DNA from: an uncultured delta proteobacterium | GTDB lineage: Bacteria > Desulfobacterota > Desulfobacteria > Desulfobacterales > SG8-13 | NCBI GenBank assembly: GCA_963848135.1 | Contig: CAWKCK010000005.1 | Coordinates: 620,001-684,000, forward strand | Direction: 5' to 3' | Length of the DNA stretch: 64,000 bases | Shown here: piece by piece, positions 9,138 through 35,449 of the stretch | How positions within the stretch are numbered: position 1 is the stretch's first letter | Layout: each line of letters opens with the position of its first letter | Position numbers and translations under genes: made by a program | The notes under the pieces: generated by a model | What the model saw: the letters and a program-made list of their open reading frames with translations, nothing else | The model's database searches: none | Told to the model about the DNA's origin: nothing

Positions 9138-10199
9138 ATGAGCAAAGAGAAGAAAACAGCGTTGGTTGCAGGAGCAACAGGCGTCGTGGGGCGGAATATA
9201 CTCCAGCATCTTTCCGCTTTGGATGATTGGGAGGTCATAGCGATATCCCGCCGTCGCCCGGATATTGAAGGCGAATATCGCCACATTGCAGTCGATCTTC
9301 TAAATGAGGAAGACTGTCGGGACAACCTCAGCAATTTACGAGAGGTATCGCATATCTTTTTCACTGCGTATGTCGAGAGGCCCACCTGGACTGAAATGGT
9401 CACACCGAATCTTAACATGCTGGTCAATCTTGTAGAGGCGATAGAACCCGTCGCGACTGGTTTACGACATATTAACTTAATGCAGGGCACAAAATGGTAC
9501 GGTAATCATCTGGGTCCCTTTAAGACACCAGCCAAGGAATCCGACCCGAGGCATATGCCACCCAACTTTTACTATGACCAGCAACGCTTCATCGTTGATC
9601 GGCAAAAGGGCAAGAATTGGACGTGGTCAAGCGCCAGGCCACATGGAGTCTGCGGTTTAGCCTTTGGAAACCCTATGAACCTCGTTATAGCTGTGGCAGT
9701 CTATGCGACGATTTCAAAAGCACTAGGTTTACCCCTTCGCCATCCCGGATCACGTGCAAATGCCCATGCCTTGTATCAGGTCACCGACAGTGGGCTGCTA
9801 GCTCGTGCGTGTACCTGGATGGCAACGGAGGAACAGTGCACGAACGAACCGTTCAACATCACAAACGGTGACATCTTCCGCTGGGAGGACTTGTGGCCTA
9901 CCCTTGCCGACTATTTCGACATGGAGATATCGCAACCCCAGAAAATTAACCTGACGCAAATGATGTCCGACAAAGGACCCTTGTGGGACGAGTTGACGAA
10001 CCAGTATGGGCTGCAGCAAGAGGTTCCCTACAAAAAACTGGTCAGGTGGGAATTCGGCGATTTCATCTTCACACCTACGTACGACATTATCTCCTCCATG
10101 ACAAAAGCGCGTCAATACGGTTTCATCGAAGTTATGGACAGTGAGGAAATGTTGTTGCGGCAGTTTGACGAACTTCGCTCAAAAAAGGTTATACCATGA
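9138..10199 (+). CDS. Extended SDR oxidoreductase, progesterone 5-beta-reductase/iridoid synthase (PRISE)-like
   Basis: GATGVVG, GTKWYG, PNFYYDQ, SSMTKARQYGF. Confidence 0.88.
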   Translation: MSKEKKTALVAGATGVVGRNILQHLSALDDWEVIAISRRRPDIEGEYRHIAVDLLNEEDCRDNLSNLREVSHIFFTAYVERPTWTEMVTPNLNMLVNLVEAIEPVATGLRHINLMQGTKWYGNHLGPFKTPAKESDPRHMPPNFYYDQQRFIVDRQKGKNWTWSSARPHGVCGLAFGNPMNLVIAVAVYATISKALGLPLRHPGSRANAHALYQVTDSGLLARACTWMATEEQCTNEPFNITNGDIFRWEDLWPTLADYFDMEISQPQKINLTQMMSDKGPLWDELTNQYGLQQEVPYKKLVRWEFGDFIFTPTYDIISSMTKARQYGFIEVMDSEEMLLRQFDELRSKKVIP

Positions 10200-10476
10200 A
10201 AATGAGATCCCATATGTGATGAAATATTAACAAATAACTCGTACTTCTCTATCGTATCAATCGCTCATACATACGCAAGAATCCTGCTACAGCCTCAAAC
10301 CTCTTAATCCTCTAATAATTGAAAGCAGTGAGAAATCTATGGGTACAATATCTGCCGAAAGAACTAATACTGAAACGATATTGAATCACGATGGTATCGT
10401 AATCAGCCCTTTGGCGGCATATTTAAAAAGAGTTTATATTTCTTAACATTTGAAGTGAAACTTAGGAGAGACAGAA

Positions 10477-11160
10477 TTAGCTGCTTAGTTGAAACTTAGC
10501 TTTCTTTGCTTTGAGATGCACCAGGTAAGTATCTTTTGAGTAACTGATGTGGCGTTTTGCAAGGTCATTTATCAGCCTAAAGTCTTTGCTATCTATTGCC
10601 CCTATGAACATTTCATGTTCTTTCTGAATTCGCTTGGTTACATCCGGCGAAGCCCAGGCGTGGTAGCGCAGAATATGACTTTGGGCTTTGAGGTGGTTAA
10701 TGACTTGAATGAGTGTTTGATTTTTGGCAAGTTCATAAATGTAGTTGTGGAAATCTTCATTGGCTGAAATCATCTTTCCGAGATCCCCATCTTTTACGCA
10801 TTCTTCAAATTTTTTCGATAGTCCCTTCAAATGTTTAATATCAGATTTTTGGGCATTTTCAGCTGCTTTCCGGGTTGCTAAAGATTCCAATTCAACGCGT
10901 ACTTCAAAAATGTTTTCAATTTCATTTTCATCCACATCGCAAACTATGGCACCCTTATACGGGATCACCTCTATCAAACCTTTGGTTTCGAGGATCTTAA
11001 ATGCATCCCTCACCCAGAATCGACTGACCTCCAGTTCTTTAGATAAATTTGCCTCAACGAGTCTCTCCCGCGGCTGGAAGACACCTGTTAAAATCATGTT
11101 TTCCAGGCGTTCGATTAGTTTTTGGAAATCCTCTTTTAAGTCCTTTTTCGGATAGGCCAT
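10477..11160 (-). CDS. GntR family regulator (FCD)
   Basis: wHTH RLVEANLSKELEVSRFWVRDA; FCD with N..FH and EH. Confidence 0.92.
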   Translation of the reverse strand: MAYPKKDLKEDFQKLIERLENMILTGVFQPRERLVEANLSKELEVSRFWVRDAFKILETKGLIEVIPYKGAIVCDVDENEIENIFEVRVELESLATRKAAENAQKSDIKHLKGLSKKFEECVKDGDLGKMISANEDFHNYIYELAKNQTLIQVINHLKAQSHILRYHAWASPDVTKRIQKEHEMFIGAIDSKDFRLINDLAKRHISYSKDTYLVHLKAKKAKFQLSS

Positions 11161-11396
11161 CGGTATCTCTGCTTATAGAAATCGACAATGAATCCAGATT
11201 TCCTGGTTATCTATAAGTTAACCTTAATCATGTATTATCCGGTTAGTTCTAATAAAAATATTTTAACGCAACGCAATTCAAAAATAGTGCCTTTACCGTA
11301 TCGCCAACTTACAGAGATTGCTACAAAGAATTTCCGTCTTGCAATCAAAAGGCGAACTTTGTCAGCAACGAACGAATTCGTTGCGAACTATTCCCC

Positions 11397-12056
11397 TTAG
11401 GTTACCATGTCTTTAAGTGCAGACATACACAGTTTTGGGCTTGCCAGAATCGGTATATCATAGGTACCTTGAGATTGGTCCACAATATGGGCCATAGAGG
11501 CTTGGGCTAAAATGATTACATCGCACTGGCCCGAAAGTTTTTCAATTGCTTCTTTTACAATCCTATCATGTTCACTGACATTCCCATTAAGTCTGGCTCT
11601 AAATGCTTCTGTCTCCAAAGAGCTAAATATTTCTACTTTTTTACCCTTTTCGGCAGCACGGGAATAAATAAGATCAACACTTGGCTTCAAGGTAGTTTTA
11701 GCGGTAGTGATGACACCAATCTTTTCGCCGAAATCAATGGCTTTATCCGCTAAAGGATCATCAATCTTCATGATAGGAATGTCAATGAGTTTTCGGACAG
11801 TATCGACTGCAGGTGAGGTGGAAGAACAAGTGAACAATATCAGGTCGACACCGATTTCCATCATTAAACTTGCTTGAATTGCAACCCTGCGAACAATCGC
11901 CGGTGTCAATCCATCATTTTCCATTAGTTGCTTCAGAATACCTTCATCCACGATATGGAAACTCTTAACATCTGGAATCGTTTCGTCAAACAATTTTCGA
12001 AACATATCTGCGAGAAATCCCACCGTATGCAAAAGGCCGATTTGCCGTACCATCAC
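11397..12056 (-). CDS. Asp/Glu/hydantoin racemase family protein
   Basis: FTCSS and LAQASM motifs (one-Cys subfamily). Confidence 0.8.
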   Translation of the reverse strand: MMVRQIGLLHTVGFLADMFRKLFDETIPDVKSFHIVDEGILKQLMENDGLTPAIVRRVAIQASLMMEIGVDLILFTCSSTSPAVDTVRKLIDIPIMKIDDPLADKAIDFGEKIGVITTAKTTLKPSVDLIYSRAAEKGKKVEIFSSLETEAFRARLNGNVSEHDRIVKEAIEKLSGQCDVIILAQASMAHIVDQSQGTYDIPILASPKLCMSALKDMVT

Positions 12057-12105
12057 TTTACTCCTGTTGAAAACAAGCCGGGTATCTCACCCCGGCTTGC
12101 CGTTT

Positions 12106-12933
12106 TTACACTCGAGGTATTTTGCGTAGAAGTTGGCCATAACCTTCCACCACATCGTTAATCCCTAATAACTTTAACAGATGCCATGCCGTTGCTTGAT
12201 TCGAGGTAACTACCGGTAGTCCGGAATCTTTTTCAATTTCTTCAATGACATCACTGCAGCGAAAGTTAGTGCATGTAATGAAGATACCATCTGCGTCTGG
12301 CACCACTGCATCCATGGCAATCTGATAGGCTTGTGAAGGTTTGGTAGCTCCCATTTCATAGAGGTCTTCAATACCTAATCCAACGACCCGAAGAACCTTA
12401 AATCCAGAATCTTCGTAAAAAATGCGAAACCGCTCATTTAGTTCTTCGATATAGGGTCCGGCAATCACAATTTTTTTTAATCCCAAAAAGCGCATAGCCT
12501 CTTCTGCTGCGGTAGCTGTAGTTGTACAAGGGATTCCATTACTTTGAGCTTCCATAGAAGGAATGGCATTGGCACAGGCACAATCCGCAGTTGCGGCTTC
12601 CATCATCTCTATCTCTTTTTTATCCCAGCCGGGGCCACCGACGAGGGATCCAGCGGTACAGGCGAAGGCAATAGCGGAGCGATTACCAATTATTGGCGAC
12701 GATAGTCCTTCAGCTAAAAGACCAGCCGCATTTCCCAACGGCTCACTGAGTTTAGAACATTCTTCCACATTCACGACTGGGTCCATGTGAATTCTTGTTT
12801 CTCGAACTTGAACATAATCAGGTATCATCCTGCAAATCTCCGGGGTTGGGTTCAAATTGGGCCCAACGACTACCAAACCAATTTTGGCCCTGTATCCATA
12901 TGGTACATCATAAGTTTCTTTTTTCTGAAGCAT
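12106..12933 (-). CDS. Maleate cis-trans isomerase / arylmalonate decarboxylase family protein
   Basis: ACTAGS, GPY, CTNF, PVVTSNQATAW. Confidence 0.85.
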   Translation of the reverse strand: MLQKKETYDVPYGYRAKIGLVVVGPNLNPTPEICRMIPDYVQVRETRIHMDPVVNVEECSKLSEPLGNAAGLLAEGLSSPIIGNRSAIAFACTAGSLVGGPGWDKKEIEMMEAATADCACANAIPSMEAQSNGIPCTTTATAAEEAMRFLGLKKIVIAGPYIEELNERFRIFYEDSGFKVLRVVGLGIEDLYEMGATKPSQAYQIAMDAVVPDADGIFITCTNFRCSDVIEEIEKDSGLPVVTSNQATAWHLLKLLGINDVVEGYGQLLRKIPRV

Positions 12934-12964
12934 GTCAATAATCCCCTTTCTTGTCTCTTTTGAT

Positions 12965-14248
12965 TTAATACCCGAATAGATTCGGTAACCAATTTGTAAC
13001 GCCAGGCCAAAATGCGACCAGAATGATCACCAAAAAAACTAGCGATAAAAATGGCCAAATTTCGCGAGTGGTTTCTTCAATGCTACAATTTGCAATTGGG
13101 CATACAATAAAAAGGCCCAAGGCTACTGGAGGTGTTATTAGTGCTACTTGTACAGTCATTACCACTATAAGACCAAAATGATGCGGCTCAATACCATATG
13201 CCGCGGCTACTGGGCCAAAAACAGGAATAAGCATAATCATGGTAGCAACCGCTTCCAAAACAAATCCGAGCATCAACAAAAAGGTTATCGTCATTACCAG
13301 AAATACATGCGGCGAGTCGGTTAAATGCAGAAATGATTTAGCAACCGTCTGTGGAACCTGGTGAGTGATCAAAATCCAGGAAATAATTTTAGCCGTAGCC
13401 AAAAGCATGAAAACTACTGCGCTTGTCCGACAGGATGAAATTAAACAATCGAATATATCTTTTAGTCGGATTTGACGAGTCACGAAAATACCGATAGCAA
13501 GTGCGTAGGTCACAGCTACTGCACCGGCTTCAGTCGGTGTAAATATGCCTCCAATAATTCCGCCCAGTATTATGACGGGTACCATTAGACCGGGTATGGC
13601 AGAGAATGCCCTACGTAAAACATTCCGAATGCTGAATGCAGCACTGCTGACCGGAAAATCTTGGCGAAACGACATGAAATAGACCAATGCCATCATACCA
13701 AATCCGATCAGGCAGCCCGGAATGGCCCCTAATAGAAAAAGCTTGGCCACTGAAATTCCACCACCGTAAACATATGCGTATATCAGCATTGCCACACTAG
13801 GGGGAATGATCGGTCCCATGATAGAAGAGGCTGCGGTTAGTACTGCTGAAAAAGTTCGGGTAAACCCCTGTTTGATCATGCTCGGGACAAGCATTGATCC
13901 TACTGCGGCTGTATCCGCCACAGCAACGCCAGTTACTCCAGCGAAAAACATGCTGGCCAATATATTTACATATGCTAAGCCACCCTTCCAGTGGCCAACA
14001 ATACTGTCAGCCAGGTCGACCAGCTTTGGCAAAACACCACATCGACTCATTAAATCGCCGGCCATGATAAAAAAAGGAATGGCCATCAACGGGAATGAAT
14101 CAATGCCCCCAAACATCAGGGTCGGTATAATACTTAACGGAATATTCGGCGTTACGATGATAAAAGCGACGGCCGCTAATCCAAGACAAAATGCAACAGG
14201 AACTCCAAGAAGTATCGTAACAACAAATACAATCGCCAGAGTTAGCAT
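12965..14248 (-). CDS. dctM: TRAP transporter large permease DctM (system 1)
   Basis: Polytopic membrane protein; PIIPPS, FTPTEA, ITPPV. Confidence 0.93.
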   Translation of the reverse strand: MLTLAIVFVVTILLGVPVAFCLGLAAVAFIIVTPNIPLSIIPTLMFGGIDSFPLMAIPFFIMAGDLMSRCGVLPKLVDLADSIVGHWKGGLAYVNILASMFFAGVTGVAVADTAAVGSMLVPSMIKQGFTRTFSAVLTAASSIMGPIIPPSVAMLIYAYVYGGGISVAKLFLLGAIPGCLIGFGMMALVYFMSFRQDFPVSSAAFSIRNVLRRAFSAIPGLMVPVIILGGIIGGIFTPTEAGAVAVTYALAIGIFVTRQIRLKDIFDCLISSCRTSAVVFMLLATAKIISWILITHQVPQTVAKSFLHLTDSPHVFLVMTITFLLMLGFVLEAVATMIMLIPVFGPVAAAYGIEPHHFGLIVVMTVQVALITPPVALGLFIVCPIANCSIEETTREIWPFLSLVFLVIILVAFWPGVTNWLPNLFGY

Positions 14249-14742
14249 ATCGTTTTTTCTCCTTTATTCTCTGGCGTTGTGTACTCCTTCCCTATTAATA
14301 TTTCCTTGATGGCAGGAATAAGGTAGATGATCATTAAAATTGAACCCACCGGGATGGCAAGATAAAAATAAAAAACTGAAATATTTACCGTGATACACAT
14401 TTGACTCAACTGCTGAGGCAGAATCCACAGCCCTTCAATAGCAACAAACACCAAAAAGACAAGGGTTAAAATGTTACTTGAAAGACGAAACCATTTCTGG
14501 TTTCGTTGACTAAAGCGCTTTGCTAAAAAATTTATATGGATATGGGAACCGTCGCGAATAGCCAATGCACTCCCCAAAAACACAATCCACACCATTAAAT
14601 ATCGCGAAAGCTCTTCAGTAAAAATCAAAGAGTGTTTAAAAACGTAACGGAGTATAACTTCGATGGTTACGATGGTTATTATGGTAGTTGCACCTAAAAA
14701 AATAAGGCCTTCAACTACTCGTGAAAGCAAACGATAAAACAT
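14242..14742 (-). CDS. dctQ: TRAP transporter small permease DctQ (system 1)
   Basis: EELSRYLMVW, HIHI; ATG start chosen at 14742 (the ORF extends to 14766). Confidence 0.9.
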   Translation of the reverse strand: MFYRLLSRVVEGLIFLGATTIITIVTIEVILRYVFKHSLIFTEELSRYLMVWIVFLGSALAIRDGSHIHINFLAKRFSQRNQKWFRLSSNILTLVFLVFVAIEGLWILPQQLSQMCITVNISVFYFYLAIPVGSILMIIYLIPAIKEILIGKEYTTPENKGEKTIC

Positions 14743-14822
14743 ATTTTGTCTCTTTCCGTCGTACACAATCGTAAGGGATCGGAGCGGTAAACCGCCCCGA
14801 TCCGTGCTGAGGAGTTATGTAC

Positions 14823-15821
14823 CTATTTATTAAAGAAAACTACGGTATCGACTATCTCTTTTCCTTCTGGGCCGAAATCTTCAACGGCCGCGGGATAAAC
14901 ACCTTGAGCGATTTTGCGAAATTCTGCCTTAGTGCTATCTGATACGTCATTAATTTTCATCCCATCTGTCTCGAGTTTAGCCATAACCTCTTTATTATCC
15001 TTTCCATTGACTTCGCGCTGCCACAAGGTCGCCTTCTGGGCTGCTACTTTTACCGCAACCTGTAAGTCTTTCGGCAATTTGTTCAGGCTGACCTTGCTCA
15101 TTAGAACATTTCCCGGTTCATTGACATGTGATGTTAAAGAGTAAAACTTCTGTACTTCATAGAGTTTTCCAAGATACACCATCGCCGGGGGGTTTTCCTG
15201 AGCATCTACAACTCCTTGTTGAAGGCCCTGATAAAGCTCGGTCCATCCCATAGGGGTCGGTGCAGCACCAAGAGCCTTAAAAAAGTCAACATGCACTTTG
15301 GCTGGCAAACAACGAATCTTAAGGCCCTTCATGTCGGTTACATTCTGTATGGGGTGCTTGTTGTTGCTCACATGCCGAAAACCATTATCCCACCATCCTA
15401 CAACCTCATATCCTTTGGCAGACAATTTCTCACCAAGATACTGGCCGAAAGGTCCATCCAACGACAGGAACATGGTATCCGTATCTTTCCAAAGGTAAGG
15501 CAAAACCGTGATCCCCATTTCAGGAACATACCCAGTCACATGGCCGGTTCCGGAAAGGACGAAGTCAACGGTTCCGATTTTTGCCATCTCCAAAACTTCT
15601 CGAATTTTTCCTAAAGATCCTGCATGGTAAACCTGAACTTCAACCCGCCCGTTGGTTGCTTCTTTCACCAGTTCGCTAAACTTTTCAGCGCCCTGGCCCC
15701 AGGAATGTTCTTTAGGCACCGGGTTGGCGAATTTTAACGTATACTCGGCGGCCTGTACATTGAACGAAACTAAAAGCACTAAACACAAGGTCAAAACACT
15801 TAATTTGGCTTTCATAATCAA
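14823..15821 (-). CDS. dctP: TRAP substrate-binding protein DctP (system 1)
   Basis: Signal peptide, NGFRH, KGLKIR (carboxylate-binding Arg), VVDAQEN. Confidence 0.93.
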   Translation of the reverse strand: MIMKAKLSVLTLCLVLLVSFNVQAAEYTLKFANPVPKEHSWGQGAEKFSELVKEATNGRVEVQVYHAGSLGKIREVLEMAKIGTVDFVLSGTGHVTGYVPEMGITVLPYLWKDTDTMFLSLDGPFGQYLGEKLSAKGYEVVGWWDNGFRHVSNNKHPIQNVTDMKGLKIRCLPAKVHVDFFKALGAAPTPMGWTELYQGLQQGVVDAQENPPAMVYLGKLYEVQKFYSLTSHVNEPGNVLMSKVSLNKLPKDLQVAVKVAAQKATLWQREVNGKDNKEVMAKLETDGMKINDVSDSTKAEFRKIAQGVYPAAVEDFGPEGKEIVDTVVFFNK

Positions 15822-15920: not shown

Positions 15921-16733
15921 TCAAGGCCGTCGATAAAAACCATCTTTCAAATCCAGCGTTAAAAAAACTTCATCCTGCGGTTGTGGAAAAACATTTCCAT
16001 AAATTTCCCAGCTAAATTCTCCTAAATATTCAAGACCTTCATTGTTCAGCCTAAGTGGTCGATCGTGGCCAGGAATAATCACCCCCCCTCTTTGCTCTAT
16101 TATATTGATACTTTTACGACTTAGATCATGATCAAGGCTTTGTGCTGTTGCCCCACCAGTTACTATTTCCCAGCCATTCTTAATGACGTCTCCACAAACG
16201 GTAACAGACTGATTACCGGCGTAAAACAAACTTAAACAACCTGGGGTATGACCAGGCAGGCAAACCACCTCCAGTTCATCTCCGATGATCAGAGCATCCT
16301 TGACTGTGTGAACTCTTCGCCCGTCCAGCAGCGCCGACCAAAAATCAGGAATAGCGTCATCTTGCTCCAAACCATCGCATACCTTTTCAGCATAGTGAAT
16401 TTCTTCCTCGCATAAAATTACCTCGGCATTTTTAAACAGTGGTAGGTTTAATACATGGTCAAAGTGAAGATGAGACAAAATCACATGTCGAATGTCCTCA
16501 GGTTCGAGTCCACGCCTATTCAAAGCCTCCCGCAGAAGCGTTCGATCGTTATAATGGCCTGTATCGAACAGGGCCCAATCACCGTCCAAGGGGAACAGTA
16601 CGATGGAGCAGTACCCGAACCATCCGCGATTGCTGCGACAGGGAATCCCCGTCAGAAGCGTATCAAAAATACCGATAACACTACAATCGAGTTTGTCGCT
16701 CTCAGTTATTATGCTGTGATTCGTTCGGGTCAT
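15921..16733 (-). CDS. Metallo-beta-lactamase fold hydrolase (AHL-lactonase-like)
   Basis: SHLHFDH, PGHTPG, GD, PGHD. Confidence 0.85.
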   Translation of the reverse strand: MTRTNHSIITESDKLDCSVIGIFDTLLTGIPCRSNRGWFGYCSIVLFPLDGDWALFDTGHYNDRTLLREALNRRGLEPEDIRHVILSHLHFDHVLNLPLFKNAEVILCEEEIHYAEKVCDGLEQDDAIPDFWSALLDGRRVHTVKDALIIGDELEVVCLPGHTPGCLSLFYAGNQSVTVCGDVIKNGWEIVTGGATAQSLDHDLSRKSINIIEQRGGVIIPGHDRPLRLNNEGLEYLGEFSWEIYGNVFPQPQDEVFLTLDLKDGFYRRP

Positions 16734-19456: not shown

Positions 19457-19877
19457 GATGTGTCTCCCGTTAATCGTCGTTGAAAACGAAACCCAATAGA
19501 GTAGCCAAAAACAACTTTCGATCGGCATCAATCGCCGTTATTGATTGAAAATCAGCGTCAGTGAACGCTAAGCGATTTTGATGTATTCCGCATCGATGCC
19601 GCCCCTATAATAGCTTTGCGGTCATTCCGAAGGTTTTCAGCTTCAGATCATTGAGAGTGCAAAATTTTTAACACCCTCTGGGGCTGATACTTTGGATAAA
19701 ACCACGCACAGAATCGGCCCCACCCACCTCTACGATTACCGCGGGATCGAATTACTGCCTTGCGCGATATATCATCGGAGAATCATTGCGTGGGTTTGTG
19801 ATTACTGGTATTATCGAATCTCATTCATAGGCTGCAGTATTCCACGGTTTGGCCAAAGTAGTCGGGTTAAGGCCCTA

Positions 19878-22985: not shown

Positions 22986-23043
22986 CTCTCTAAGAAGGGC
23001 GACCCTGAGCAGGCCGCCCCTGAGTTTTCAAACCAAGGTGCGT

Positions 23044-26130: not shown

Positions 26131-26250
26131 AGATTCATCTTTCTCCATCAGGAGTGGATCGTCGCTCCGGAGTAACCCGGTATAAGAGGCCGGAGCCGAA
26201 CCAGGTTGTACGGCGACCTTCCGGGTCTTCCGCATCGCCTCTTAAAAGTA

Positions 26251-27799: not shown

Positions 27800-28339
27800 T
27801 TAGGCCGCACTGACCCTTTCAGCTCCGAGATTGAATGCTTCCAGATTGATCTGCTCCTTGCCCTCTGGAACCGAAGAGGTAATCGCCTGCTCCAAGGCTT
27901 GCTGACTGACAATCCCGGTAATCTTGTAAAGGGCTCCCAGCATTATCATGTTTGCAACTACCGCAATTTTGATTTCATTACGCGCGATGGTCGTGGCCGG
28001 CACTTTATAAAAATGCTTTACCTTCGGTGGAATCTCATGAACCATGTCGCTGTCGACGATTAGTATTCCATCAGGCTTTAATACTTCTCCAAAGCGGTTA
28101 ATTGAATCCTGCGCCTGGGCAACCAAAATATCAGGGGCGGTGACCCTTGGAAATTCAACAGGTTTATCCGCGATAATCACCCATGTGGCCGCAAACCCTC
28201 CTCTGAGTTCTGAAGAATAGGCCTGGGTCTGAGTGGCATACTTATCGTCGAAAGTGACTGCAGCTGAGCCGAGAATAACACCGGCCAGAATTGAACCCTG
28301 TCCTCCCACGCCGGCAATAGTCAGATCGGTTTGTGCCAT
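27800..28339 (-). CDS. 2-oxoacid:ferredoxin oxidoreductase gamma subunit
   Basis: GVGGQG, YSSELRGG, NMIMLGA. Confidence 0.92.
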   Translation of the reverse strand: MAQTDLTIAGVGGQGSILAGVILGSAAVTFDDKYATQTQAYSSELRGGFAATWVIIADKPVEFPRVTAPDILVAQAQDSINRFGEVLKPDGILIVDSDMVHEIPPKVKHFYKVPATTIARNEIKIAVVANMIMLGALYKITGIVSQQALEQAITSSVPEGKEQINLEAFNLGAERVSAA

Positions 28340-29172
28340 TATCTGTCCTCCATCATTTCACAATGCAATTGAAGCCATTGTTCACTCAACTCGTCTTTTT
28401 CACGATCAATGAATTCGCCGACAATGATCTTACCCTGAAGCGCCGTCTCGTCCATTTTTTCAGCCTTGTTGATTCGGATGCTGTTTTCTTTGAAATGTTT
28501 TAACATATCTATCGCACCACCCAGACGACTTGCCCTGCCGTACTGAACAGGGCATTGGCTAACAGCTTCCAGCAGAGCAAATCCTTTTTTTTGGATCCCT
28601 TTTTTAATAGACTTCGTCATCTGACGGGGGTGAATGGTCGTCCAGCGAGCGACATAGGAAGCCCCGGCGGCAACGATCATTGGCGAAATATCAAAATCGT
28701 GCTCCATGGCACCATAAGGACTAGTGACGGTTTTGGTTCCCCGTGGTGTGGTGGGAGCCGTTTGCCCCCCGGTCATTCCATAGATACCGTTGTTTACAAG
28801 CACCACAGTTAAGTTGATATTTCTGCGAGCAGCATGAATCAGGTGATTGCCTCCGATGGCAGTTAAATCACCGTCTCCACTGATAACCATCACATGTTTA
28901 TGCGGCAGGCCTAATTTTACACCTGTGGCAAAAGCGATCGGCCTCCCGTGAGTGGTGTGCAGGGTATCAGCGTTGAAAAAGGGGCTGGGGATCCATGCTG
29001 AACAGCCAATACCGGAAACGAAAATAAAATCATCGATATCCATTTCCAGTTCGTCGATCGCGCGCAAAATCGCCTGGGAAACTGTACCAATACCGCAACC
29101 CGGGCAGGTAGTCGTGCGCTTGATATGGCTGCGGGCGAATTTCTGCTTTAAGGGATGGGCTGTAGCTGTCAT
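28339..29172 (-). CDS. 2-oxoacid:ferredoxin oxidoreductase beta subunit (TPP-binding)
   Basis: CPGCG, SGIGCS, GDGD...NNGIYGMTGGQ. Confidence 0.93.
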   Translation of the reverse strand: MTATAHPLKQKFARSHIKRTTTCPGCGIGTVSQAILRAIDELEMDIDDFIFVSGIGCSAWIPSPFFNADTLHTTHGRPIAFATGVKLGLPHKHVMVISGDGDLTAIGGNHLIHAARRNINLTVVLVNNGIYGMTGGQTAPTTPRGTKTVTSPYGAMEHDFDISPMIVAAGASYVARWTTIHPRQMTKSIKKGIQKKGFALLEAVSQCPVQYGRASRLGGAIDMLKHFKENSIRINKAEKMDETALQGKIIVGEFIDREKDELSEQWLQLHCEMMEDR

Positions 29173-30329
29173 TGAATTATCTCCTTGATATGATCGAGAA
29201 TGTATTGCGGGTCATGTATCTGACCGAGAGTTTGCGGACCTAAAAAAGATACTTGGCAGGCATGGGCAGCCTCAGCTTTGATATACGGGTACAGTTGGCC
29301 AGCGTTATTTTCCAACACCAGCATGTAGTCTATTTTTTTAGCAACATTACGGACTTCTTTATCCGGAAACGGCCAACAGGTCAGTAGGCGCAATGTGCCT
29401 ACACCTAATCCCTCAGTTCGAGCCATTCTTGCTGCCGCCCGAGCAGATCGTGAAACGGTGCCGCAACTGACCAACGCAATTGTTGCCTTGTCACAATTAT
29501 CTTGAACCTGAACAATATCGTCGCGATGATTGAGCACCTTTTCTATCGGACGCATTGTGTAGCGGTGCATGACCGCCGGATCGGTCAAATTCCGCATGCC
29601 GTGCTCATCATGACAGGAACTGGTCACGTGAGCTTTAAGTCCACGGCCGAAAACCGGCATGGGGGCCACATTGACATCGAGGAAATCCTGCCGCTCTAAA
29701 ACGGTATCAGCCGGTTCCGCTATTTTTCGATTCTTCAGTCGGATAAGATCTTTTTCGGGAATAACGACCTGCTCTCGCATATGACCTATAAATCCATCAG
29801 CCATTACAAAAACAGGGATTCGATATTTCTCAGCCAGATTAAAGGCCCGTATGGTCAGGTCAAACATTTCTTGAGGACTCTCTGGACAGAGTGCAATGAT
29901 TTGGTAATCTCCATGAGAACCTCGTGCGACCTGTACGATATCGGCACCAAGCCCTACCGACGGTACTCCAGTGGAAGGCCCGAAACGCTGGACATCAACG
30001 ATCACCAATGGCGTTTCCGTGGCCACTGCAAATCCGATGTTTTCTTGCATCAAACTGATACCCGGCCCCGAAGTAACGGTCATCGCCTTACAGCCGGCCC
30101 AGGAGGCACCGATAGCCGAACAGATCGCACTGATCTCGTCTTCTGTCTGTAAAAACGTGCCACTGACTTTCGGTAGCCTTGCGGCCAGCAAATTGGCAAC
30201 TTCACTGGCCGGTGTAATCGGATAACCTGCAGCAAAATTGCACCCCGCAGCGATTGCGCCTTCCGTGCAGGCCCAATTCCCCATCTCAAAGTGCGTTCCT
30301 GTTCGTATTCTATTATTTTTCTGCATCAT
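29169..30329 (-). CDS. 2-oxoacid:ferredoxin oxidoreductase alpha subunit
   Basis: GYPITP, QTEDE, TSGPG, QRFGPSTG; start chosen at ATG 30329. Confidence 0.93.
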   Translation of the reverse strand: MMQKNNRIRTGTHFEMGNWACTEGAIAAGCNFAAGYPITPASEVANLLAARLPKVSGTFLQTEDEISAICSAIGASWAGCKAMTVTSGPGISLMQENIGFAVATETPLVIVDVQRFGPSTGVPSVGLGADIVQVARGSHGDYQIIALCPESPQEMFDLTIRAFNLAEKYRIPVFVMADGFIGHMREQVVIPEKDLIRLKNRKIAEPADTVLERQDFLDVNVAPMPVFGRGLKAHVTSSCHDEHGMRNLTDPAVMHRYTMRPIEKVLNHRDDIVQVQDNCDKATIALVSCGTVSRSARAAARMARTEGLGVGTLRLLTCWPFPDKEVRNVAKKIDYMLVLENNAGQLYPYIKAEAAHACQVSFLGPQTLGQIHDPQYILDHIKEIIQ

Positions 30330-30573
30330 GATCCTCTTGCTTTTTCGCTGGTCTATCTTCGTTTTTTTCGACAACAATCGCATAATCCGGGCAGGATATC
30401 ATACAGTTCAAACAACCGGTGCATTCATCAGGGTCCTTGACTTCGGGAGGATAATACCCTGATTCATTCATTTCCTTACAAGCTTCGAACAGATGTTCTG
30501 GACAGACATAAGTACAGATACCACAGTCATCAACGCCTTTGCATGCTTGCGAGAATATGGTTATTTTTGGCAT
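30313..30573 (-). CDS. 2-oxoacid:ferredoxin oxidoreductase delta subunit (2x[4Fe-4S])
   Basis: CKG...CGICTYVCP and CTGCLNCMISCP. Confidence 0.9.
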   Translation of the reverse strand: MPKITIFSQACKGVDDCGICTYVCPEHLFEACKEMNESGYYPPEVKDPDECTGCLNCMISCPDYAIVVEKNEDRPAKKQEDHDAEK

Positions 30574-30633
30574 ACAGGTCTCCTTTGCCTACCTTGCACG
30601 TTCTGAAAAAACTTTCCTTACAGACTCATTTCT

Positions 30634-31590
30634 CTAAACTGTTAAAAATGGGTACTTTGGATCGTTACCCTCCAATACGCACAATACATCTTTAGCAACC
30701 ATGCTCATGCGGATCATCGCTTCCTCTGTATGGGCTGACATGTGCGGTGTTCCAACAAAGTTATCCAGTTCAAGGATCGGATTGTCCCTCGTAACCGGCT
30801 CCACTTCATATACGTCCGACCCGGCACCAGCTATTCTGTTCTTCTGCAATGCTGCAACGACATCATTTTCGTTCCATACAGGCCCTCTGGCCATATTTAT
30901 CAAAATCGCTTCGGGCTTCATCAAATTGACCAGTTCAGCATTGACAAAGTGCTGGGTTTGCGGCAGCAGCGGCATATTAATTGAGATAAAATCCGCTTCA
31001 CTAAATAAGATTTTTTCATCGACCCGCTGGGCCTCCAGTTCATTTTCCGCCTCTGGATATGCAATTGGATCGTAATATAAAACGCTCATATCGAAGCCCA
31101 ACCGGCAGATTCTTGCAGTTTGTTGACCAATACGGCCAAACCCCAACACCCCCAGAGTTTTTTCTCTGAGCTCGGTTCCTATGAGTTCATAACGTGCCTG
31201 CCAGTTACTGTTCCGGAGAGCAATGTCAGCCAGTCTTATTTTCTTTGCCAGCATGAGCGCCAGTGCGAGGAAGTGTTCGGCGACACTTTCCTTGTTGGCT
31301 TGAGGCGTATATACGACCTTGACCCCTCTCTTCTTTGCAGCCAACAAATCAATAGCATCCAATCCAACGCCGTGCCTTCCAATAACCTTCAATTTCGGTG
31401 CGGCTTCGATTATTTTTTCTGTTACGGCCCCGTTAGCCCGAATGATTATGGCATTTACATCTGTAACCTGATCGATTAGGTCCTTTTCGTCGTATGATTT
31501 GGCATATCGGAGGTCACAATCCGCTTCCAAAATTGCCGTACCCTCTCGATGCATGGATTCATACAACAAGATTTTATATTTTTTCTCCAT
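30634..31590 (-). CDS. D-isomer-specific 2-hydroxyacid dehydrogenase (SerA-like, no ACT domain)
   Basis: RHGVGLD, GFGRIG, NMARG, DVYEVEP, TPH. Confidence 0.92.
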   Translation of the reverse strand: MEKKYKILLYESMHREGTAILEADCDLRYAKSYDEKDLIDQVTDVNAIIIRANGAVTEKIIEAAPKLKVIGRHGVGLDAIDLLAAKKRGVKVVYTPQANKESVAEHFLALALMLAKKIRLADIALRNSNWQARYELIGTELREKTLGVLGFGRIGQQTARICRLGFDMSVLYYDPIAYPEAENELEAQRVDEKILFSEADFISINMPLLPQTQHFVNAELVNLMKPEAILINMARGPVWNENDVVAALQKNRIAGAGSDVYEVEPVTRDNPILELDNFVGTPHMSAHTEEAMIRMSMVAKDVLCVLEGNDPKYPFLTV

Positions 31591-31651
31591 TTATTCCCCT
31601 CAACAGGTAGCCATCAAGCTTGATATTTCAATTATTACAGTAGTTTATAAG

Positions 31652-31702
31652 GTTGACAACTAAATTGTTAACAATATAGTTTATTATATTGTTATTAGTC
31701 AA
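31652..31702 (-). promoter_or_regulatory. Sigma70-like promoter overlapped by a palindromic operator (probable GntR site)
   Basis: Minus strand TTGACT-N18-TATATT; perfect palindrome ATTGTTAACAAT at 31664-31675 plus TTGTCAAC next to it. Confidence 0.55.
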
Positions 31703-32014: not shown

Positions 32015-33355
32015 TCAGCCTCTCAAGGGGTTCAAGCGCATATTTTCATTAAAACTTAAAACAAGTGGTTCACGATCCACAGTAACGTCAGCAAGCTTCT
32101 GAAGTTCTGGTAAAATTGCTTCACTGGCCCAAAAAGTTTCCAATTCGCCGGTATTAACGATACGCACCATGCGAGCTTTCGCTGGATCAGGCACCCGTGC
32201 CAATGCTGCTTCAACTGCAGCCCGGTCGTTTTCGAGAGGAATGGGCATGCGTGCTGATCGCAGTACACCTGATGTAAATACATTCGTATACGTGGCATTC
32301 CAGTCAATTTGATCAATCATTCTGCGGGTCGTCAAATCAGCCATGCCGATCCCGGTGGCGTTCCCATGTGAGTGCAGTGTCAAATCCAACACGATGAGAA
32401 TACGAAAATCCGGTTTTCGTGGACCGCCCTCCCGCCGCCAGAAGCCGATTACATTGGGGTCCATTCCGGCCCCGCTGATATTTTTCCCCATCTCGTCCAC
32501 TAACAATATATCCAGATCATCCACCGGCAATTTCGGTAATAATTGCCAGGCAATTTTTAAAAATTCCCGATCAAGGTCGGCGAATCCTTGTGGACCGACG
32601 AGCTTTATAGAGTGCGTCCCACCACTGGCATTCTCCGTAACCCCCAGGCCACCAAGGACCGAAGTCTTTTGCATGATTAACCGGGCAGCTGGTACTATTG
32701 ACTTTGCAAGGTCATATTTATGCATATTCGCGGCACCTATTTGCCGGCCACAGCCAACGGCCAAAATTTTACACAAACCGGATTCTACATCAGAACGAAA
32801 AGCCGTATGTGGTTTTATCCGGTTGATGACCATGATGTGGTCGGCCGCTATGGCATCTTTGGCAAAAAAAACTTCAGCTCCCGACTCAATATGCCCCAAG
32901 GAGACGACATCCATATTTGAAACAATAGGGGCCTTTACAGTTTTTTCAGAAATCCCAAGTTCCGCAAGCATAAGTTCCTGCCCTTCAGCAGTAGCACCGC
33001 CATGTGAACCCATAGCAGGAATAATATAAGGCTCAAGCTGCATCGCACGAAGGCATTCCACTACCGTCGCAACTATTACCCTGAGGTCATGCGTGCCTCT
33101 AGATCCAACTCCGACAGCGACTCGTTGGCCAGGAAGGATCTTTGTCTCCGGTCTGAAGGTCGCGAAATTGTTGCGGACAACTTGTTCAACATTTTTTATA
33201 GATGTGACATTAAAACTTTGTTTGACACGATGAAATAAAGGATAGTTCATGTATCTTTTCCATTTCTCAAAATTTGGAGGTGCATAGTTTTCCGTGGATG
33301 CATCTGGTGTTGTAAATGTTTCAGCCCCTGGTAAAACTGAGCTGAACCCTGACAT
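32015..33355 (-). CDS. Lactate racemase (LarA/DUF2088)-superfamily protein
   Basis: GSRG, PAMGSHGGAT, NRIKPHT, GKNISGAGMD; true start may be ATG 33250. Confidence 0.75.
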   Translation of the reverse strand: MSGFSSVLPGAETFTTPDASTENYAPPNFEKWKRYMNYPLFHRVKQSFNVTSIKNVEQVVRNNFATFRPETKILPGQRVAVGVGSRGTHDLRVIVATVVECLRAMQLEPYIIPAMGSHGGATAEGQELMLAELGISEKTVKAPIVSNMDVVSLGHIESGAEVFFAKDAIAADHIMVINRIKPHTAFRSDVESGLCKILAVGCGRQIGAANMHKYDLAKSIVPAARLIMQKTSVLGGLGVTENASGGTHSIKLVGPQGFADLDREFLKIAWQLLPKLPVDDLDILLVDEMGKNISGAGMDPNVIGFWRREGGPRKPDFRILIVLDLTLHSHGNATGIGMADLTTRRMIDQIDWNATYTNVFTSGVLRSARMPIPLENDRAAVEAALARVPDPAKARMVRIVNTGELETFWASEAILPELQKLADVTVDREPLVLSFNENMRLNPLRG

Positions 33356-33392
33356 CCTTTATACTTAGATCTTCTTTAGTCTGTTTCTTGTC

Positions 33393-34499
33393 TTATACTT
33401 CACAGCTGGATTCAACAAGCTTTAGTACCGCGTCGCCAATTTGCGTGGTTGTTGCATTTCCTCCCATGTCGGGAGTCAGTACCTTTCCGGATCGCAGAAC
33501 GTCGGCAACAGCCGATTCGATCCTGTGCGCAGCCATGGTTGCATCAGCGTCCCCGTCTCGTTCGCCCAGCCAGTCCAGCATCATTGCTACCGATAAGATG
33601 GTTGCTAATGGGTTGGCCACATTTAGTCCAGCGATTTGGGGTGCGCTGCCATGAGAGGGTTGGAACAAGGCATACTGAGAACCAATTTCTGCAGAAGGCC
33701 CCAGGCCCAAACCGCCGACCAAGCCGGCGCCCAGATCGGATAGTATATCACCGAACATATTCTCCATAACGAGGACATCATAATTCCATGGGGCTTGAAC
33801 CATGTACAGAGACATTGCATCAACGTAACAAGCCTCAGCGCCTATATCGGTATGACGGGAGGCCACTTCGTAAAAAACTTTGCGGAAAAACGCGAGGCTG
33901 CGGAACACATTGGCTTTGTCCACGCAGGTTACCATTCGTTTACCATCGTATGGCCGACCGTTGCGACGTTTCGCCAATTGGAACGCAAACTCAACCACCC
34001 GCTCAGTTCCTTTGCGAGTGATCAGCATTGAGTCGGAGACGGCCTGATCTTGGGCCACGCTGCCTCCACCGAAGGAAGCGAAGAGCCCCTCGGTGTTTTC
34101 CCGCAGTACAATAAAATCGATCCCAGGGCCGACATTCCTCAAAACCGATGGTACTCCCTCGTAGAGTTTGATTGGACGAACTGCTGCGTACAGATCCAAA
34201 GCCTTCCGTAGACCGACAACTTGATGGGGCTGGACTTCAGTTCCGTCTACTAAACGAACGTCTGGCAGACCAATGGCTGACAATAGAACGGCATCGGCTC
34301 TCTTGCATTCCTCGATCAATTCAGTAGGCAAGATTTCTCCGGTTTTCTTGTAAAAGGCCGCCCCAAGCGGATGTTCACTAATCCCAACTTGTAGTTCGGT
34401 TAGACCGGATATTGTGCCTTTGAGCACTTTAAGTGCCTCCCTCATGACTTCCGGCCCAATGCCATCACCGGGTAAAACGACTATTCGATAGGTACCCAC
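33393..34499 (-). CDS. Isocitrate/isopropylmalate/tartrate dehydrogenase family protein
   Basis: PGDGIGPEV, RENTEG, DKANV, NMFGDILSD, HGSAP; GTG start. Confidence 0.92.
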   Translation of the reverse strand: MGTYRIVVLPGDGIGPEVMREALKVLKGTISGLTELQVGISEHPLGAAFYKKTGEILPTELIEECKRADAVLLSAIGLPDVRLVDGTEVQPHQVVGLRKALDLYAAVRPIKLYEGVPSVLRNVGPGIDFIVLRENTEGLFASFGGGSVAQDQAVSDSMLITRKGTERVVEFAFQLAKRRNGRPYDGKRMVTCVDKANVFRSLAFFRKVFYEVASRHTDIGAEACYVDAMSLYMVQAPWNYDVLVMENMFGDILSDLGAGLVGGLGLGPSAEIGSQYALFQPSHGSAPQIAGLNVANPLATILSVAMMLDWLGERDGDADATMAAHRIESAVADVLRSGKVLTPDMGGNATTTQIGDAVLKLVESSCEV

Positions 34500-34540
34500 G
34501 TCGGAGTCCTTTCTACTGAATAAACATAATTCTTATATTC

Positions 34541-35449
34541 TCAGATTCGGTAAATCTGTTCGGCGTTGCCACAAAAAAGTTCGAAACGCTCATTGTCAGT
34601 ATAACCGCAGGTGATCTCATTATAGGCTGCCCAAAGTCGGGAATAGCTGCTCATCATCCCGTCCACTGGAAAATTGCTGCCGAACATACAACGCTCCACA
34701 CTGAAAGTTTCAATAGCGTGGAGAACCAACGGTCGGATGGATTCAACTGTCCAGTCGCGATCGAACATTCCAAGCCCGGAAATTTTAACGCAAACATTCT
34801 GAAGTTCAGCCAATGACCGCATTCCCTTTCGCCAGATTTTAAGATTCTCTTCATCTAGTTTGTAAGGCTGCCCTGTGTGACATAGGATAAACTGCAGATC
34901 TGGATTTTCCTTCACCAATTCGCATGCTTGGCCCATTTGTTGGGGATATACTTGCAAATCAAACGAGAAATCAAATTTCTTCAGCAAAGGGATATTTTTC
35001 TGCCACACTGAATTTTCGAGCAATGAGGGTCTATGATTATTTGGGTCAACCAAACACTCGTGCAGCATCTGACGGATGCCCCGAACGTTTGGGTAATTGC
35101 TATGGGCTTCGAGCATGGACTGCACATCAGAACGACCAAGATCTGCGTAAGCGATGATACCGTGAGGAAAACCCCTCGAACCTGGCGAATCAGCAACCAT
35201 TTGAAGCCATCTAGTTTCCCTTACTGGATCGGCGTGATCGTGCTCTGCCTGAACATGGATAGATTTAGCCAGATTAACATCAGCGGCATCTTTGAAAAAA
35301 TCTTCTAAGATATAATTCCTTCGAATTGCTGAATATTCTCCGCAGACTCGATTTGTAATGTGATCCGTAAGCCATGGATAGTAGTTGGTGTTAAGGTCCC
35401 ACAAGTGGTGATGCGTATCAATCATTGTTACAGGATTGGGTGAGGACAT
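34541..35449 (-). CDS. Amidohydrolase family (sugar-acid/pyrone lactonase-like, COG3618 type)
   Basis: IDTHHHLW, VRGIRQ, CH.G.P, VKISG, FGSNFP. Confidence 0.85.
   Translation of the reverse strand: MSSPNPVTMIDTHHHLWDLNTNYYPWLTDHITNRVCGEYSAIRRNYILEDFFKDAADVNLAKSIHVQAEHDHADPVRETRWLQMVADSPGSRGFPHGIIAYADLGRSDVQSMLEAHSNYPNVRGIRQMLHECLVDPNNHRPSLLENSVWQKNIPLLKKFDFSFDLQVYPQQMGQACELVKENPDLQFILCHTGQPYKLDEENLKIWRKGMRSLAELQNVCVKISGLGMFDRDWTVESIRPLVLHAIETFSVERCMFGSNFPVDGMMSSYSRLWAAYNEITCGYTDNERFELFCGNAEQIYRI

Follow-up and report, generated by a model that had tools for sequence, protein, structure and literature searches.

A mosaic catabolic island that pairs a 2-oxoacid:ferredoxin oxidoreductase with a variant AbfD-like enzyme, a possible ATP-independent entry to β-oxidation

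How could a strict anaerobe bring a hydroxy or sugar acid into β-oxidation without a coenzyme A (CoA) ligase or CoA transferase to activate it? The question is raised by a gene island of ~26 kb (positions 9138–35449) in the genome of a Desulfobacterales-like anaerobe (6.03 Mb, 18 contigs), which we analyzed within a window of 64,000 nucleotides (G000:C5:620001–684000) whose numbering is used throughout. Gene identities were assigned from the open reading frame (ORF) listing with Pfam and NCBIfam, and 25 island ORFs were scanned. Twenty-four co-oriented genes run along the minus strand (35449 to 10477) and one convergent gene lies on the plus strand. None of the 25 ORFs carries a CoA-ligase or CoA-transferase Pfam domain, in agreement with an earlier sequence-only reading of this DNA. 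All of the gene classes named in that reading were recovered in place with Pfam and NCBIfam, and its gene list is completed here with a cupin, an orphan protein of 287 amino acids and a cytidylate-kinase-like/BON protein.

The island is a mosaic of modules and not one linear pathway. Its conserved core consists of a D-isomer-specific 2-hydroxyacid dehydrogenase (D2HADH), a four-subunit 2-oxoacid:ferredoxin oxidoreductase (OFOR) and an AbfD-like enzyme (hereafter AbfDv). Our best reading, which we hold tentatively and at slightly less than an even call, is that OFOR and the AbfD-type enzyme form an ATP-independent funnel within a GntR-controlled mosaic catabolic island. No paper describing such a pathway was found in the literature searched, which leaves most subscription journals outside; in the sequence-only reading, too, the gene set had not been recognized as a described pathway.

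The conserved core and its recurrence

The core genes and the isomerase gene that precedes them are the following.
32015–33355, minus strand: LarA-like nickel-pincer (NPN) 2-hydroxyacid isomerase (NCBIfam NF052515, NPN_iso_grp_22; 467 bits against a 400-bit cut-off)
30634–31590, minus strand: D2HADH (Pfam PF02826 and PF00389), the first gene of the core operon
30313–30573, minus strand: OFOR delta subunit (Pfam, NCBIfam), with two CxxCxxCxxxCP-type motifs of a 2×[4Fe-4S] ferredoxin in its translation
29169–30383, minus strand: OFOR alpha subunit (POR_N; NCBIfam PRK08659, 452 bits against a 411-bit cut-off)
28339–29172, minus strand: OFOR beta subunit (TPP_enzyme_C; Pfam, NCBIfam)
27800–28339, minus strand: OFOR gamma subunit (POR; Pfam, NCBIfam)
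26251–27693, minus strand: AbfDv, an AbfD-like [4Fe-4S]/FAD enzyme (1U8V, E 7e-131, end-to-end alignment)

Read along the minus strand, the island starts with an Amidohydro_2 hydrolase, an Iso_dh-family dehydrogenase, the LarA-like isomerase, D2HADH, the OFOR delta, alpha, beta and gamma subunits, AbfDv, an old yellow enzyme (OYE)-type flavoenzyme (OYE2) and the DctP, DctQ and DctM genes of one tripartite ATP-independent periplasmic (TRAP) transporter (set 2, TRAP2). The cupin, the orphan, the cytidylate-kinase-like/BON protein, a second flavoenzyme (OYE1), a metallo-β-lactamase (MBL)-fold hydrolase and a further TRAP set (set 1, TRAP1) follow DctM2. After DctM1 come an Amdase/maleate-isomerase-like protein, an Asp/Glu-racemase-family protein and a GntR/FCD regulator.

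Co-occurrence in other genomes had been set beforehand as the test on which the idea of a functional unit could fail, and the genes do co-occur. With the AbfD-like protein as anchor, we collected 80 loci (labelled L), one genome per species, and mapped all island proteins onto them. The anchor is 75–93% identical across these loci. OFOR alpha or beta adjoins AbfDv in at least 17 of the 80, spanning Desulfobacterota and metagenome-assembled genomes (MAGs) of Firmicutes, a count that is a lower bound, many of the loci being on short contigs. D2HADH orthologs (62–79% identity) stand directly upstream of OFOR in L005, L015, L016, L031, L044 and L075, and a longer string of D2HADH, OFOR, AbfD, OYE2, TRAP2, cupin, orphan and NPN isomerase genes recurs in L005, L016 and L031. 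Directly after the NPN isomerase, L005 and L016 carry a co-oriented ortholog (56–58% identical) of the convergent island gene, a PRISE-like short-chain dehydrogenase/reductase (SDR). In L002, whose AbfD is 93% identical, AbfD is directly followed by the MBL hydrolase, TRAP1, Amdase-like, racemase-family and GntR genes.

The orphan protein served as a second, independent anchor and turned up in three of the 401 genomes sampled from the phylum, its own included. The other two, G042 and G216, belong to different families of the phylum and carry both TRAP systems. G042 has the Amdase-like, TRAP1, MBL, OYE1 and OFOR genes on one strand, followed by a major facilitator superfamily gene and AbfD, with OYE2, TRAP2, cupin and orphan genes in a divergent group. 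In G216, one string holds the orphan, cupin, TRAP2, AbfD, OFOR, D2HADH, racemase-like, Amdase-like, TRAP1 and GntR genes.

The four OFOR subunits are encoded together, as is characteristic of four-subunit 2-oxoacid:ferredoxin oxidoreductases. Among the NCBIfam matches, only the generic model of the alpha subunit (PRK08659) passes its cut-off. None of the 2-oxoglutarate-specific NCBIfam cut-offs was reached (beta PRK09628, 260 of 364 bits; delta OGOR_delta, 43 of 125; alpha PRK09627, 302 of 579). The best PDB match is a 2-keto-acid enzyme from Pyrococcus (1yd7, E 2e-103), and a 2-oxoglutarate synthase (8ys5) matches with E 3e-62. The genome holds at least four OFOR alpha paralogs, and the next-best to the island copy are just 41–42% identical to it, which suggests that the island OFOR is an extra, dedicated enzyme.

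AbfDv is the product of the sole HpaB_N-family gene in the genome. We aligned 81 sequences: the window protein, the proteins of those 78 of the 80 loci in which more than 95% of the gene length is covered, and the copies of G042 and G216. The Fe-S ligands C99, C103, H292 and C299 of Clostridium aminobutyricum AbfD (1U8V) correspond to C100, C104, H290 and C297 of AbfDv and are conserved in 81 of 81. Residues T190, E257, Y296 and E455 are described as important for dehydratase activity in the C. aminobutyricum enzyme in a preprint by DeMirci et al. (10.1101/2020.02.05.935528, citing Zhang 2015). AbfDv retains one of these four, T190 (as T191). The other three are replaced: E257 by C255 (80 of 81 relatives), Y296 by H294 (81 of 81) and E455 by S442 (81 of 81), which is followed by D443. 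With these replacements so persistent, AbfDv is a member of a distinct, strongly constrained subfamily that is not to be filed as a canonical 4-hydroxybutyryl-CoA dehydratase. On this point the sequence-only reading, which had called the enzyme an AbfD-like dehydratase, is revised.

The NPN isomerase belongs by its NCBIfam score to group 22 of the LarA homologs (LarAH) and retains, as judged by eye against the PMC7583248 dataset, the Arg, His, His, Lys, His signature of the group. Desguin et al. (2020; PMC7583248) assign no function to group 22 and give SDRs (45%), COG0129 sugar-acid dehydratases (30%) and TRAP genes (30%) as its genomic neighbors. A search of the genome for cofactor genes, which covered LarC only, located LarC (PF01969) at G000:C2:488065–489189. 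Orthologs of the isomerase (55–59% identity) are present in L005, L016, L031, L075 and L081. A phmmer search of the PDB with the island protein gave no match at E ≤ 0.01, solved LarA structures included. Aldo-keto reductase (AKR) genes lie beside AbfDv in L003, L014 and L044. Nickel-pincer-dependent AKRs are described in a 2026 report (PMC13524815).

A shared operator and the feeder modules

Two features of the window bear on the control of the core.
31664–31675, no strand: 12-bp perfect palindrome ATTGTTAACAAT, a putative GntR-type operator 74–85 nt upstream of the D2HADH start
10477–11160, minus strand: GntR/FCD regulator (Pfam)

The palindrome overlaps a promoter-like TTGACT-18-TATATT at 31702–31673, and the identical 12-mer occupies the equivalent place in five of six related loci. 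Two exact copies occur in the 6.03-Mb genome against 0.33 expected, the second (G000:C18:2433) inside an ORF of 372 amino acids. Across the 80 loci (1.23 Mb), the exact palindrome is present in 7 of the 17 OFOR-linked loci versus 1 of the remaining 63. Second copies stand before DctP2 in L031 and upstream of the GntR gene in L044, and G042 has three copies: one before the OFOR-OYE1-MBL-TRAP1 operon, one before the AbfD gene and one before the OYE2-TRAP2-cupin-orphan operon. Between them, the three operons so marked in G042 contain both TRAP systems, both OYEs, OFOR and AbfD. This sharing of an operator is the strongest evidence that a single regulon unites the core with the two TRAP/OYE modules. 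The GntR/FCD protein is likely the repressor acting at the palindrome. Its orthologs (48–83% identity) adjoin AbfDv or OFOR in L002, L003, L015, L028, L031 and L044. No further operators stood out in the window, where 8 sites with up to two mismatches compare with a mean of 3.9 in shuffled sequences, 7 of 100 of which reach 8. A search for 10-mers shared between the intergenic regions of the island gave nothing convincing.

Around the core lie genes that we propose to be interchangeable feeder modules delivering its precursors. One would comprise TRAP2, OYE2, the cupin and the orphan, with or without the PRISE SDR; another TRAP1, the MBL hydrolase, the two-Cys isomerase, the racemase-like protein and OYE1; and a third, seen in this genome only, the Amidohydro_2/Iso_dh cassette, whose products would be a 2-oxoacid and CO2.
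34541–35449, minus strand: Amidohydro_2 hydrolase of a lactonase/decarboxylase/hydratase family (PF04909, E 5e-31)
33393–34499, minus strand: Iso_dh-family β-decarboxylating dehydrogenase (PF00180, E 2e-94)
24199–26235, minus strand: OYE2, an OYE/FadH-type Fe-S flavoenzyme of the ene-reductase type (PF00724, PF07992)
21202–24072, minus strand: TRAP2 (DctP 23044–24072, DctQ 22476–22985, DctM 21202–22689; Pfam)
20775–21134, minus strand: small Cupin_2 protein of 119 amino acids (PF07883, E 1e-19)
19878–20741, minus strand: orphan protein of 287 amino acids, no family
18632–19531, minus strand: cytidylate-kinase-like + BON protein (PF13189, PF04972)
16758–18608, minus strand: OYE1, an OYE/FadH-type Fe-S flavoenzyme (Pfam)
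15921–16733, minus strand: MBL-fold hydrolase, lactonase-like (PF00753; HxHxDH motif)
12965–15821, minus strand: TRAP1 (DctP 14823–15821, DctQ 14242–14766, DctM 12965–14248; Pfam)
12106–12933, minus strand: Amdase/maleate-isomerase/EutA-like protein, an isomerase or racemase (PF17645)
11397–12056, minus strand: Asp/Glu/hydantoin-racemase-family protein (PF01177), with the first catalytic Cys motif only
9138–10199, plus strand: PRISE-like SDR of the enone-reductase family, convergent (PF22917, E 1e-23)

OYE1 and OYE2 are 30% identical and share the domain make-up of their class, in which a Cys cluster accompanies an Oxidored_FMN domain and a Pyr_redox_2 domain for FAD/NAD(P). PDB matches of OYE2 include 2-naphthoyl-CoA reductase (6qkg, E 1e-81) and 2,4-dienoyl-CoA reductase (1ps9, E 4e-79), and its Cys motif reads C369xxCxxxC...C390. 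The cluster of OYE1 (C315xxC318xxC321xxC324...C333) differs in its CxxCxxCxxC spacing. In G042, an OYE1 ortholog (48%) separates OFOR from the MBL gene. Each TRAP set is complete, with DctP, DctQ and DctM together; the true start of DctM2 is probably later than the ORF start, because the ORF overlaps DctQ. The best PDB match is 4p47 (E 1e-55) for DctP2 and 4pdd (E 1.5e-58) for DctP1, and the best relatives of the two (4p47, 4pdd, 4nq8, 4p9k and 4pdh) fall at E 1e-55 to 1e-58. We take the ligands of these relatives to be erythronate and pantoate, and make no substrate call from them. Orthologs of TRAP1 occur in L002, G042 and G216.

Both hydrolases that had been called lactonase-like are present, and the lactonase label itself goes back to sub-threshold matches. 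The MBL hydrolase, with an ortholog (78%) in L002, matches models of acyl-homoserine lactone (AHL) lactonases weakly and below the NCBIfam threshold (E 1e-12). The best NCBIfam match of the Amidohydro_2 protein is L-fucono-1,5-lactonase (E 3e-27), at 96 bits against a 400-bit cut-off, and its best PDB match is 4dlf (E 3e-11). The Amdase-like protein matches AMDase (E 4e-19) and maleate isomerase 2xec (E 2e-12) in the PDB, carries both catalytic Cys motifs as in isomerases and racemases of that fold, and has orthologs (75–92%) in L002, G042 and G216. Orthologs of the racemase-family protein are found in L002 (86%), L075 (49%) and G216 (37%), and one of the cytidylate-kinase-like/BON protein (49%) ends the L031 cluster.

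The gap of 49 bp between the Amdase-like and racemase-family genes contains a terminator- or attenuator-like, GC-rich hairpin of 9 bp (12074–12099). It is the top-ranked call on the plus strand (9 pairs, CCGTTTTTAC tail); on the minus strand of the genes, the same gap has just a 5-pair hairpin (12092–12080) followed by a T-run. Overall, promoter and terminator scans of the window gave counts at the level of chance.

The cupin adjoins the orphan in seven of seven loci that hold the orphan. Its match to KdgF is weak and non-specific (5fq0, E 7e-4, about 20th among 41 generic cupin matches in the PDB). Sequence searches with the orphan protein matched nothing in Pfam, NCBIfam or the PDB. Most of its 168 homologs are more than 60% identical, and the named ones read "hypothetical" or "uncharacterized", without a functional name; an NCBI record (P0054) places one of them in Thermodesulforhabdus norvegica. 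A profile search placed the family at 116 clusters among 1.84 billion representatives, and a scan of 13 distant members revealed no Pfam domain; a 14th protein scanned with this set (P0236) is an unrelated repeat protein. The alignment shows eight invariant His together with Asp and Glu, arranged in two repeated halves. For the AlphaFold2 model (pLDDT 93.5), Foldseek returned nothing from the PDB at E ≤ 1e-3 (best E 1.2e-3, TM ~0.15), and the ESM Atlas gave no usable match. VIA-align against 48,161 chains gave HypA as best match (Z 4.5) and weak half-domain matches to the glyoxalase-type VOC fold (Z 3.0–3.8 over ~60 residues). The orphan probably represents an undescribed family of metalloenzymes.

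The sequence-only reading had placed the Amidohydro_2 and Iso_dh genes in a single pathway with the rest, and this part is not upheld: they form a separate cassette seen at no other OFOR-AbfD locus. Close homologs of the Amidohydro_2 protein (E ≤ 1e-40) were found in its own genome and in none of the 400 further genomes sampled from the phylum. Among metagenome loci, the Amidohydro_2 gene is followed by Iso_dh in 11 of 27, with Iso_dh neighbors 71–85% identical. The pair comes with its own GntR and TRAP genes in L088, L096 and L103, and in L096 also with a racemase-family gene 46% identical to that of the window. No metagenome locus elsewhere joins the cassette to OFOR, AbfD or the NPN isomerase. 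Given this separation, and its own GntR and TRAP genes, the cassette is an added module in the window, beside an IS110 element. In NCBIfam, the Iso_dh protein comes closest to homoisocitrate, isopropylmalate and tartrate dehydrogenases, without reaching the cut-off of any; that a 2-oxoacid released together with CO2 could feed OFOR is speculation.

The genes at the island borders are unrelated, with a carboxylase and a sensor kinase on one side and IS110, DUF401, Lon and ClpXP genes on the other.
35787–36806, plus strand: IS110-family transposase gene beside the island, 8 copies in the genome

At 35256–35900, just before IS110, the summed contig depth is very high in all four sequencing runs and loose ends are numerous, as a repeat would produce. 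Positions 1–4132 (minus strand), upstream of the island and unrelated to it, hold carboxyltransferase and biotin-carboxyl-carrier/HMGL-like genes, a pair of the oxaloacetate- or methylmalonyl-CoA-decarboxylase type. Contigs from the RNA library X9 match 28 of the 30 bins with a likeness of at least 90%. They are short fragments from relatives and do not show transcription, and no operon boundaries can be read from them.

A possible funnel to acyl-CoA and its rivals

In the reading we favor, the NPN isomerase would supply the D-form of a 2-hydroxy acid, which D2HADH would oxidize to the 2-oxoacid. The dedicated OFOR would decarboxylate the 2-oxoacid to an acyl-CoA, an activation that would need neither ATP nor a CoA donor, and AbfDv, acting after OFOR in the order that we infer, would convert the acyl-CoA to an ordinary β-oxidation intermediate. 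The 2-oxoacid would most likely be a C5 compound hydroxylated at C5; 5-hydroxy-2-oxopentanoate and 2-keto-3-deoxypentonate, the form of it with a further 4-hydroxyl, are the two options. OFOR would produce 4-hydroxybutyryl-CoA or 3,4-dihydroxybutyryl-CoA, and AbfDv would then yield crotonyl-CoA or acetoacetyl-CoA. The pentanoate option would require a reductive step, for which OYE, PRISE, SDR, AKR, iron-type alcohol dehydrogenase (Fe-ADH) and β-hydroxyacid-dehydrogenase genes are available at various loci; the deoxypentonate option would proceed to acetoacetyl-CoA with no reduction.

The related loci suggest what the presumed feeder enzymes might handle. L015 and L075 carry a sugar-type ABC system and an SDR around OFOR-AbfDv, with DJ-1/PfpI in L015. 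L081 has TctA, the NPN isomerase, an ILVD/EDD dehydratase, an FAD-linked oxidase and a UxaA-type dehydratase, and L004 has Ldh_2 and, divergently, an FAH-family protein, a β-hydroxyacid dehydrogenase and TRAP genes. An aldehyde:ferredoxin oxidoreductase and an Fe-ADH are found in L042, an aminotransferase in L028, and the cupin and orphan with a GntP permease and GlcD/GlcF-like genes in L062. These swaps, together with the reported neighbors of group 22, suggest that the substrates are hydroxy or sugar acids, which would enter in the form of 2-hydroxy or 2-oxo acids. Many of the loci also have a carbonyl reductase, though its family varies, which would suit an aldehyde or enone being reduced to the 5-hydroxy acid. 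In L074, TRAP and LarA genes, UxaA-type and ILVD/EDD dehydratases, D2HADH, OFOR and AbfDv are followed by thiolase, 3-hydroxyacyl-CoA dehydrogenase and enoyl-CoA hydratase (crotonase) genes, which suggest that a C4 acyl-CoA leaves the core in the direction of acetyl-CoA. The idea of an ATP-free step from OFOR through a 4-hydroxyacyl-CoA to AbfD, first put forward from the sequence, thus stands in part: the adjacency of OFOR and AbfDv, the missing ligase and the L074 genes fit a C4-CoA, while AbfDv is non-canonical and its pairing with OFOR is not obligatory.

Several observations weigh against this reading. AbfDv lacks three of the four residues described as important for the dehydratase in the preprint cited above, and its reaction may therefore differ. 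Five complete genomes carry AbfDv with no adjacent OFOR, and their best matches to the island OFOR are 33–47% identical; with no ortholog of the island enzyme in these genomes, the pairing cannot be obligatory. Elsewhere AbfDv stands beside SucCD-like CoA ligases (Firmicutes), Ldh_2 or DAO/BFD proteins, and its neighbors at loci without OFOR are GntR and DAO/BFD, TRAP genes, Ldh_2, AKR or SucCD-like CoA ligases (Firmicutes). The best family and PDB matches of OFOR are generic 2-oxoacid and 2-oxoglutarate enzymes, from which specificity cannot be read. Finally, one operator copy lies in the window, so that co-regulation of the distal genes would rest on co-orientation and on G042.

Records from Syntrophus, Desulfonema and Desulfatiglandales (L048, L039, L038, L046, L063, L066, L068 and others) show GntR, AbfDv and a DAO + BFD-[2Fe-2S] protein; in L048 a Pyr_redox_2 protein and DUF1667 come next, with SucCD-like ligase genes nearby. 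This GntR-AbfDv-DAO/BFD context looks like a second, likewise uncharacterized use of AbfDv.

A more explicit version of the favored reading, possible yet on the doubtful side, specifies an undescribed ATP-independent anaerobic funnel for C5 intermediates at the level of α-ketoglutarate semialdehyde. A C5 acid would be reduced or hydrated to a 5-hydroxy-2-oxoacid, OFOR would form the 4-hydroxyacyl-CoA, and the Cys/His/Ser subfamily of AbfD would carry out a radical dehydration; the orphan and cupin would be a new ring-opening, isomerizing or dehydrating metalloenzyme. The sources may be pentonates, aldarates, hydroxyproline or reduced furan or pyrone carboxylates. The ring reduction and lactone opening first suggested for this island are still a guess, and the related loci point rather to sugar acids. 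One such guess, a furoate route (ring reduction by OYE2, enol-ether opening by cupin and orphan, then SDR, isomerase and D2HADH), was set aside: no OYE2 ortholog accompanies the cupin and orphan in L062 and G216, and the permease of L062 is of the GntP type.

The residue replacements also suggest an alternative, in our estimate unlikely, in which AbfDv catalyzes a different step on the way to an unchanged end product, a C4 enoyl-CoA. AbfDv could be a dedicated vinylacetyl-CoA isomerase, with OFOR acting on 2-oxopent-4-enoate, or a radical dehydratase of the free 5-hydroxy-2-oxoacid before OFOR. This would agree with the subfamily-wide loss of three dehydration residues alongside intact Fe-S ligands and an intact FAD-contacting Thr, with the five genomes that have AbfDv and no island-type OFOR, and with FAH-family and HpcH-aldolase genes near some loci (L004, G216), families that presumably include 2-oxopent-4-enoate hydratase and its aldolase. 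However, SucCD-like CoA ligases beside AbfDv in Firmicutes loci suggest a CoA-ester substrate, and the replacing residues (Cys, His and Ser-Asp) could still serve as acid/base groups.

The matches of the OFOR subunits raise the question of whether the enzyme is a plain 2-oxoglutarate:ferredoxin oxidoreductase that converts 2-hydroxyglutarate or 2-oxoglutarate-level precursors to succinyl-CoA, with AbfDv not directly coupled. Beta, gamma and delta have 2-oxoglutarate enzymes as best NCBIfam or PDB matches, and other loci offer FAD-linked oxidase, DAO, D2HADH and SucCD-like partner genes, families that we take to include 2-hydroxyglutarate dehydrogenases and succinyl-CoA ligases. Sugar-acid and hydroxyproline routes, moreover, classically end in 2-oxoglutarate. 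Nevertheless, the NCBIfam matches, that of alpha to its generic model excepted, are below cut-off, and other OFOR paralogs are available in the genome for housekeeping. The island encodes no succinate-semialdehyde dehydrogenase, 4-hydroxybutyrate dehydrogenase or CoA-transferase that would link succinyl-CoA to an AbfD-type enzyme, and the tight OFOR-AbfDv adjacency and the β-oxidation genes of L074 would go unexplained. We regard this explanation as quite improbable.

Chance juxtaposition by mobile elements of unrelated operons for organic-acid uptake, with no common pathway, would suit the IS110 element (8 genomic copies) beside the island, the independence of the amidohydrolase/Iso_dh cassette elsewhere, the intergenic gaps of 346 and 425 bp inside the island, the one operator copy in the window and the varying module content between genomes, but it is very improbable given that the same modules are neighbors again in G042 and G216, from different families, that three G042 operons share the operator and that the MBL-TRAP1 module directly follows AbfDv in L002.

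Significance and comparison with known systems

If the funnel from OFOR to AbfDv is real, it would give strict anaerobes a new entry to β-oxidation from hydroxy and sugar acids, saving the ATP or CoA donor of substrate activation and gaining reduced ferredoxin. It would also provide functions for a widespread AbfD subfamily (75–93% identical; Desulfobacterota, Syntrophus, Syntrophorhabdus and Firmicutes MAGs), for LarA group 22 and for the orphan family (~116 sequence clusters). The island would then hold natural enzymes for the conversion of 5-hydroxy-2-oxopentanoate to 4-hydroxybutyryl-CoA, which to our knowledge has so far only been designed by metabolic engineers for the production of 1,4-butanediol and 4-hydroxybutyrate.

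Several known systems resemble parts of the island. The NPN isomerase matches the group-22 model of the LarA superfamily and LarC is in the genome, whereas group 22 has no assigned substrate in Desguin et al. (2020) and the island protein has no phmmer match to a solved LarA. The island OYEs match the clostridial 2-enoate reductases, 2,4-dienoyl-CoA reductase and 2-naphthoyl-CoA reductase in domain architecture and Cys cluster, but they are distant from the characterized members.

AbfDv is homologous over its full length to C. aminobutyricum AbfD and keeps the [4Fe-4S] ligands and T190, and a crotonyl-CoA-type product is plausible by analogy with the L074 neighbors; it differs in having Cys, His and Ser at positions E257, Y296 and E455. 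In the known AbfD route, from 4-aminobutyrate or succinate to butyrate, a CoA-transferase makes 4-hydroxybutyryl-CoA. The island, in contrast, has no transferase or ligase, and OFOR lies directly upstream of AbfDv.

The Weimberg-type pentonate, glucarate and hydroxyproline pathways, which converge on 2,5-dioxopentanoate (α-ketoglutarate semialdehyde), share with the related loci ILVD/EDD and UxaA-type dehydratases, FAH- and DHDPS-family proteins and DAO-type dehydrogenases. The window island differs from them in having no sugar-acid dehydratase, and the Weimberg/Dahms families sought with Pfam (aldonate dehydratase, 2-keto-3-deoxy-pentonate dehydratase and α-ketoglutarate-semialdehyde dehydrogenase) occur in related loci only. 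In those pathways, an aldehyde dehydrogenase oxidizes the semialdehyde to 2-oxoglutarate. By contrast, an Aldedh gene is present in just one related locus (L003), and reductases, OFOR and AbfDv stand in its place.

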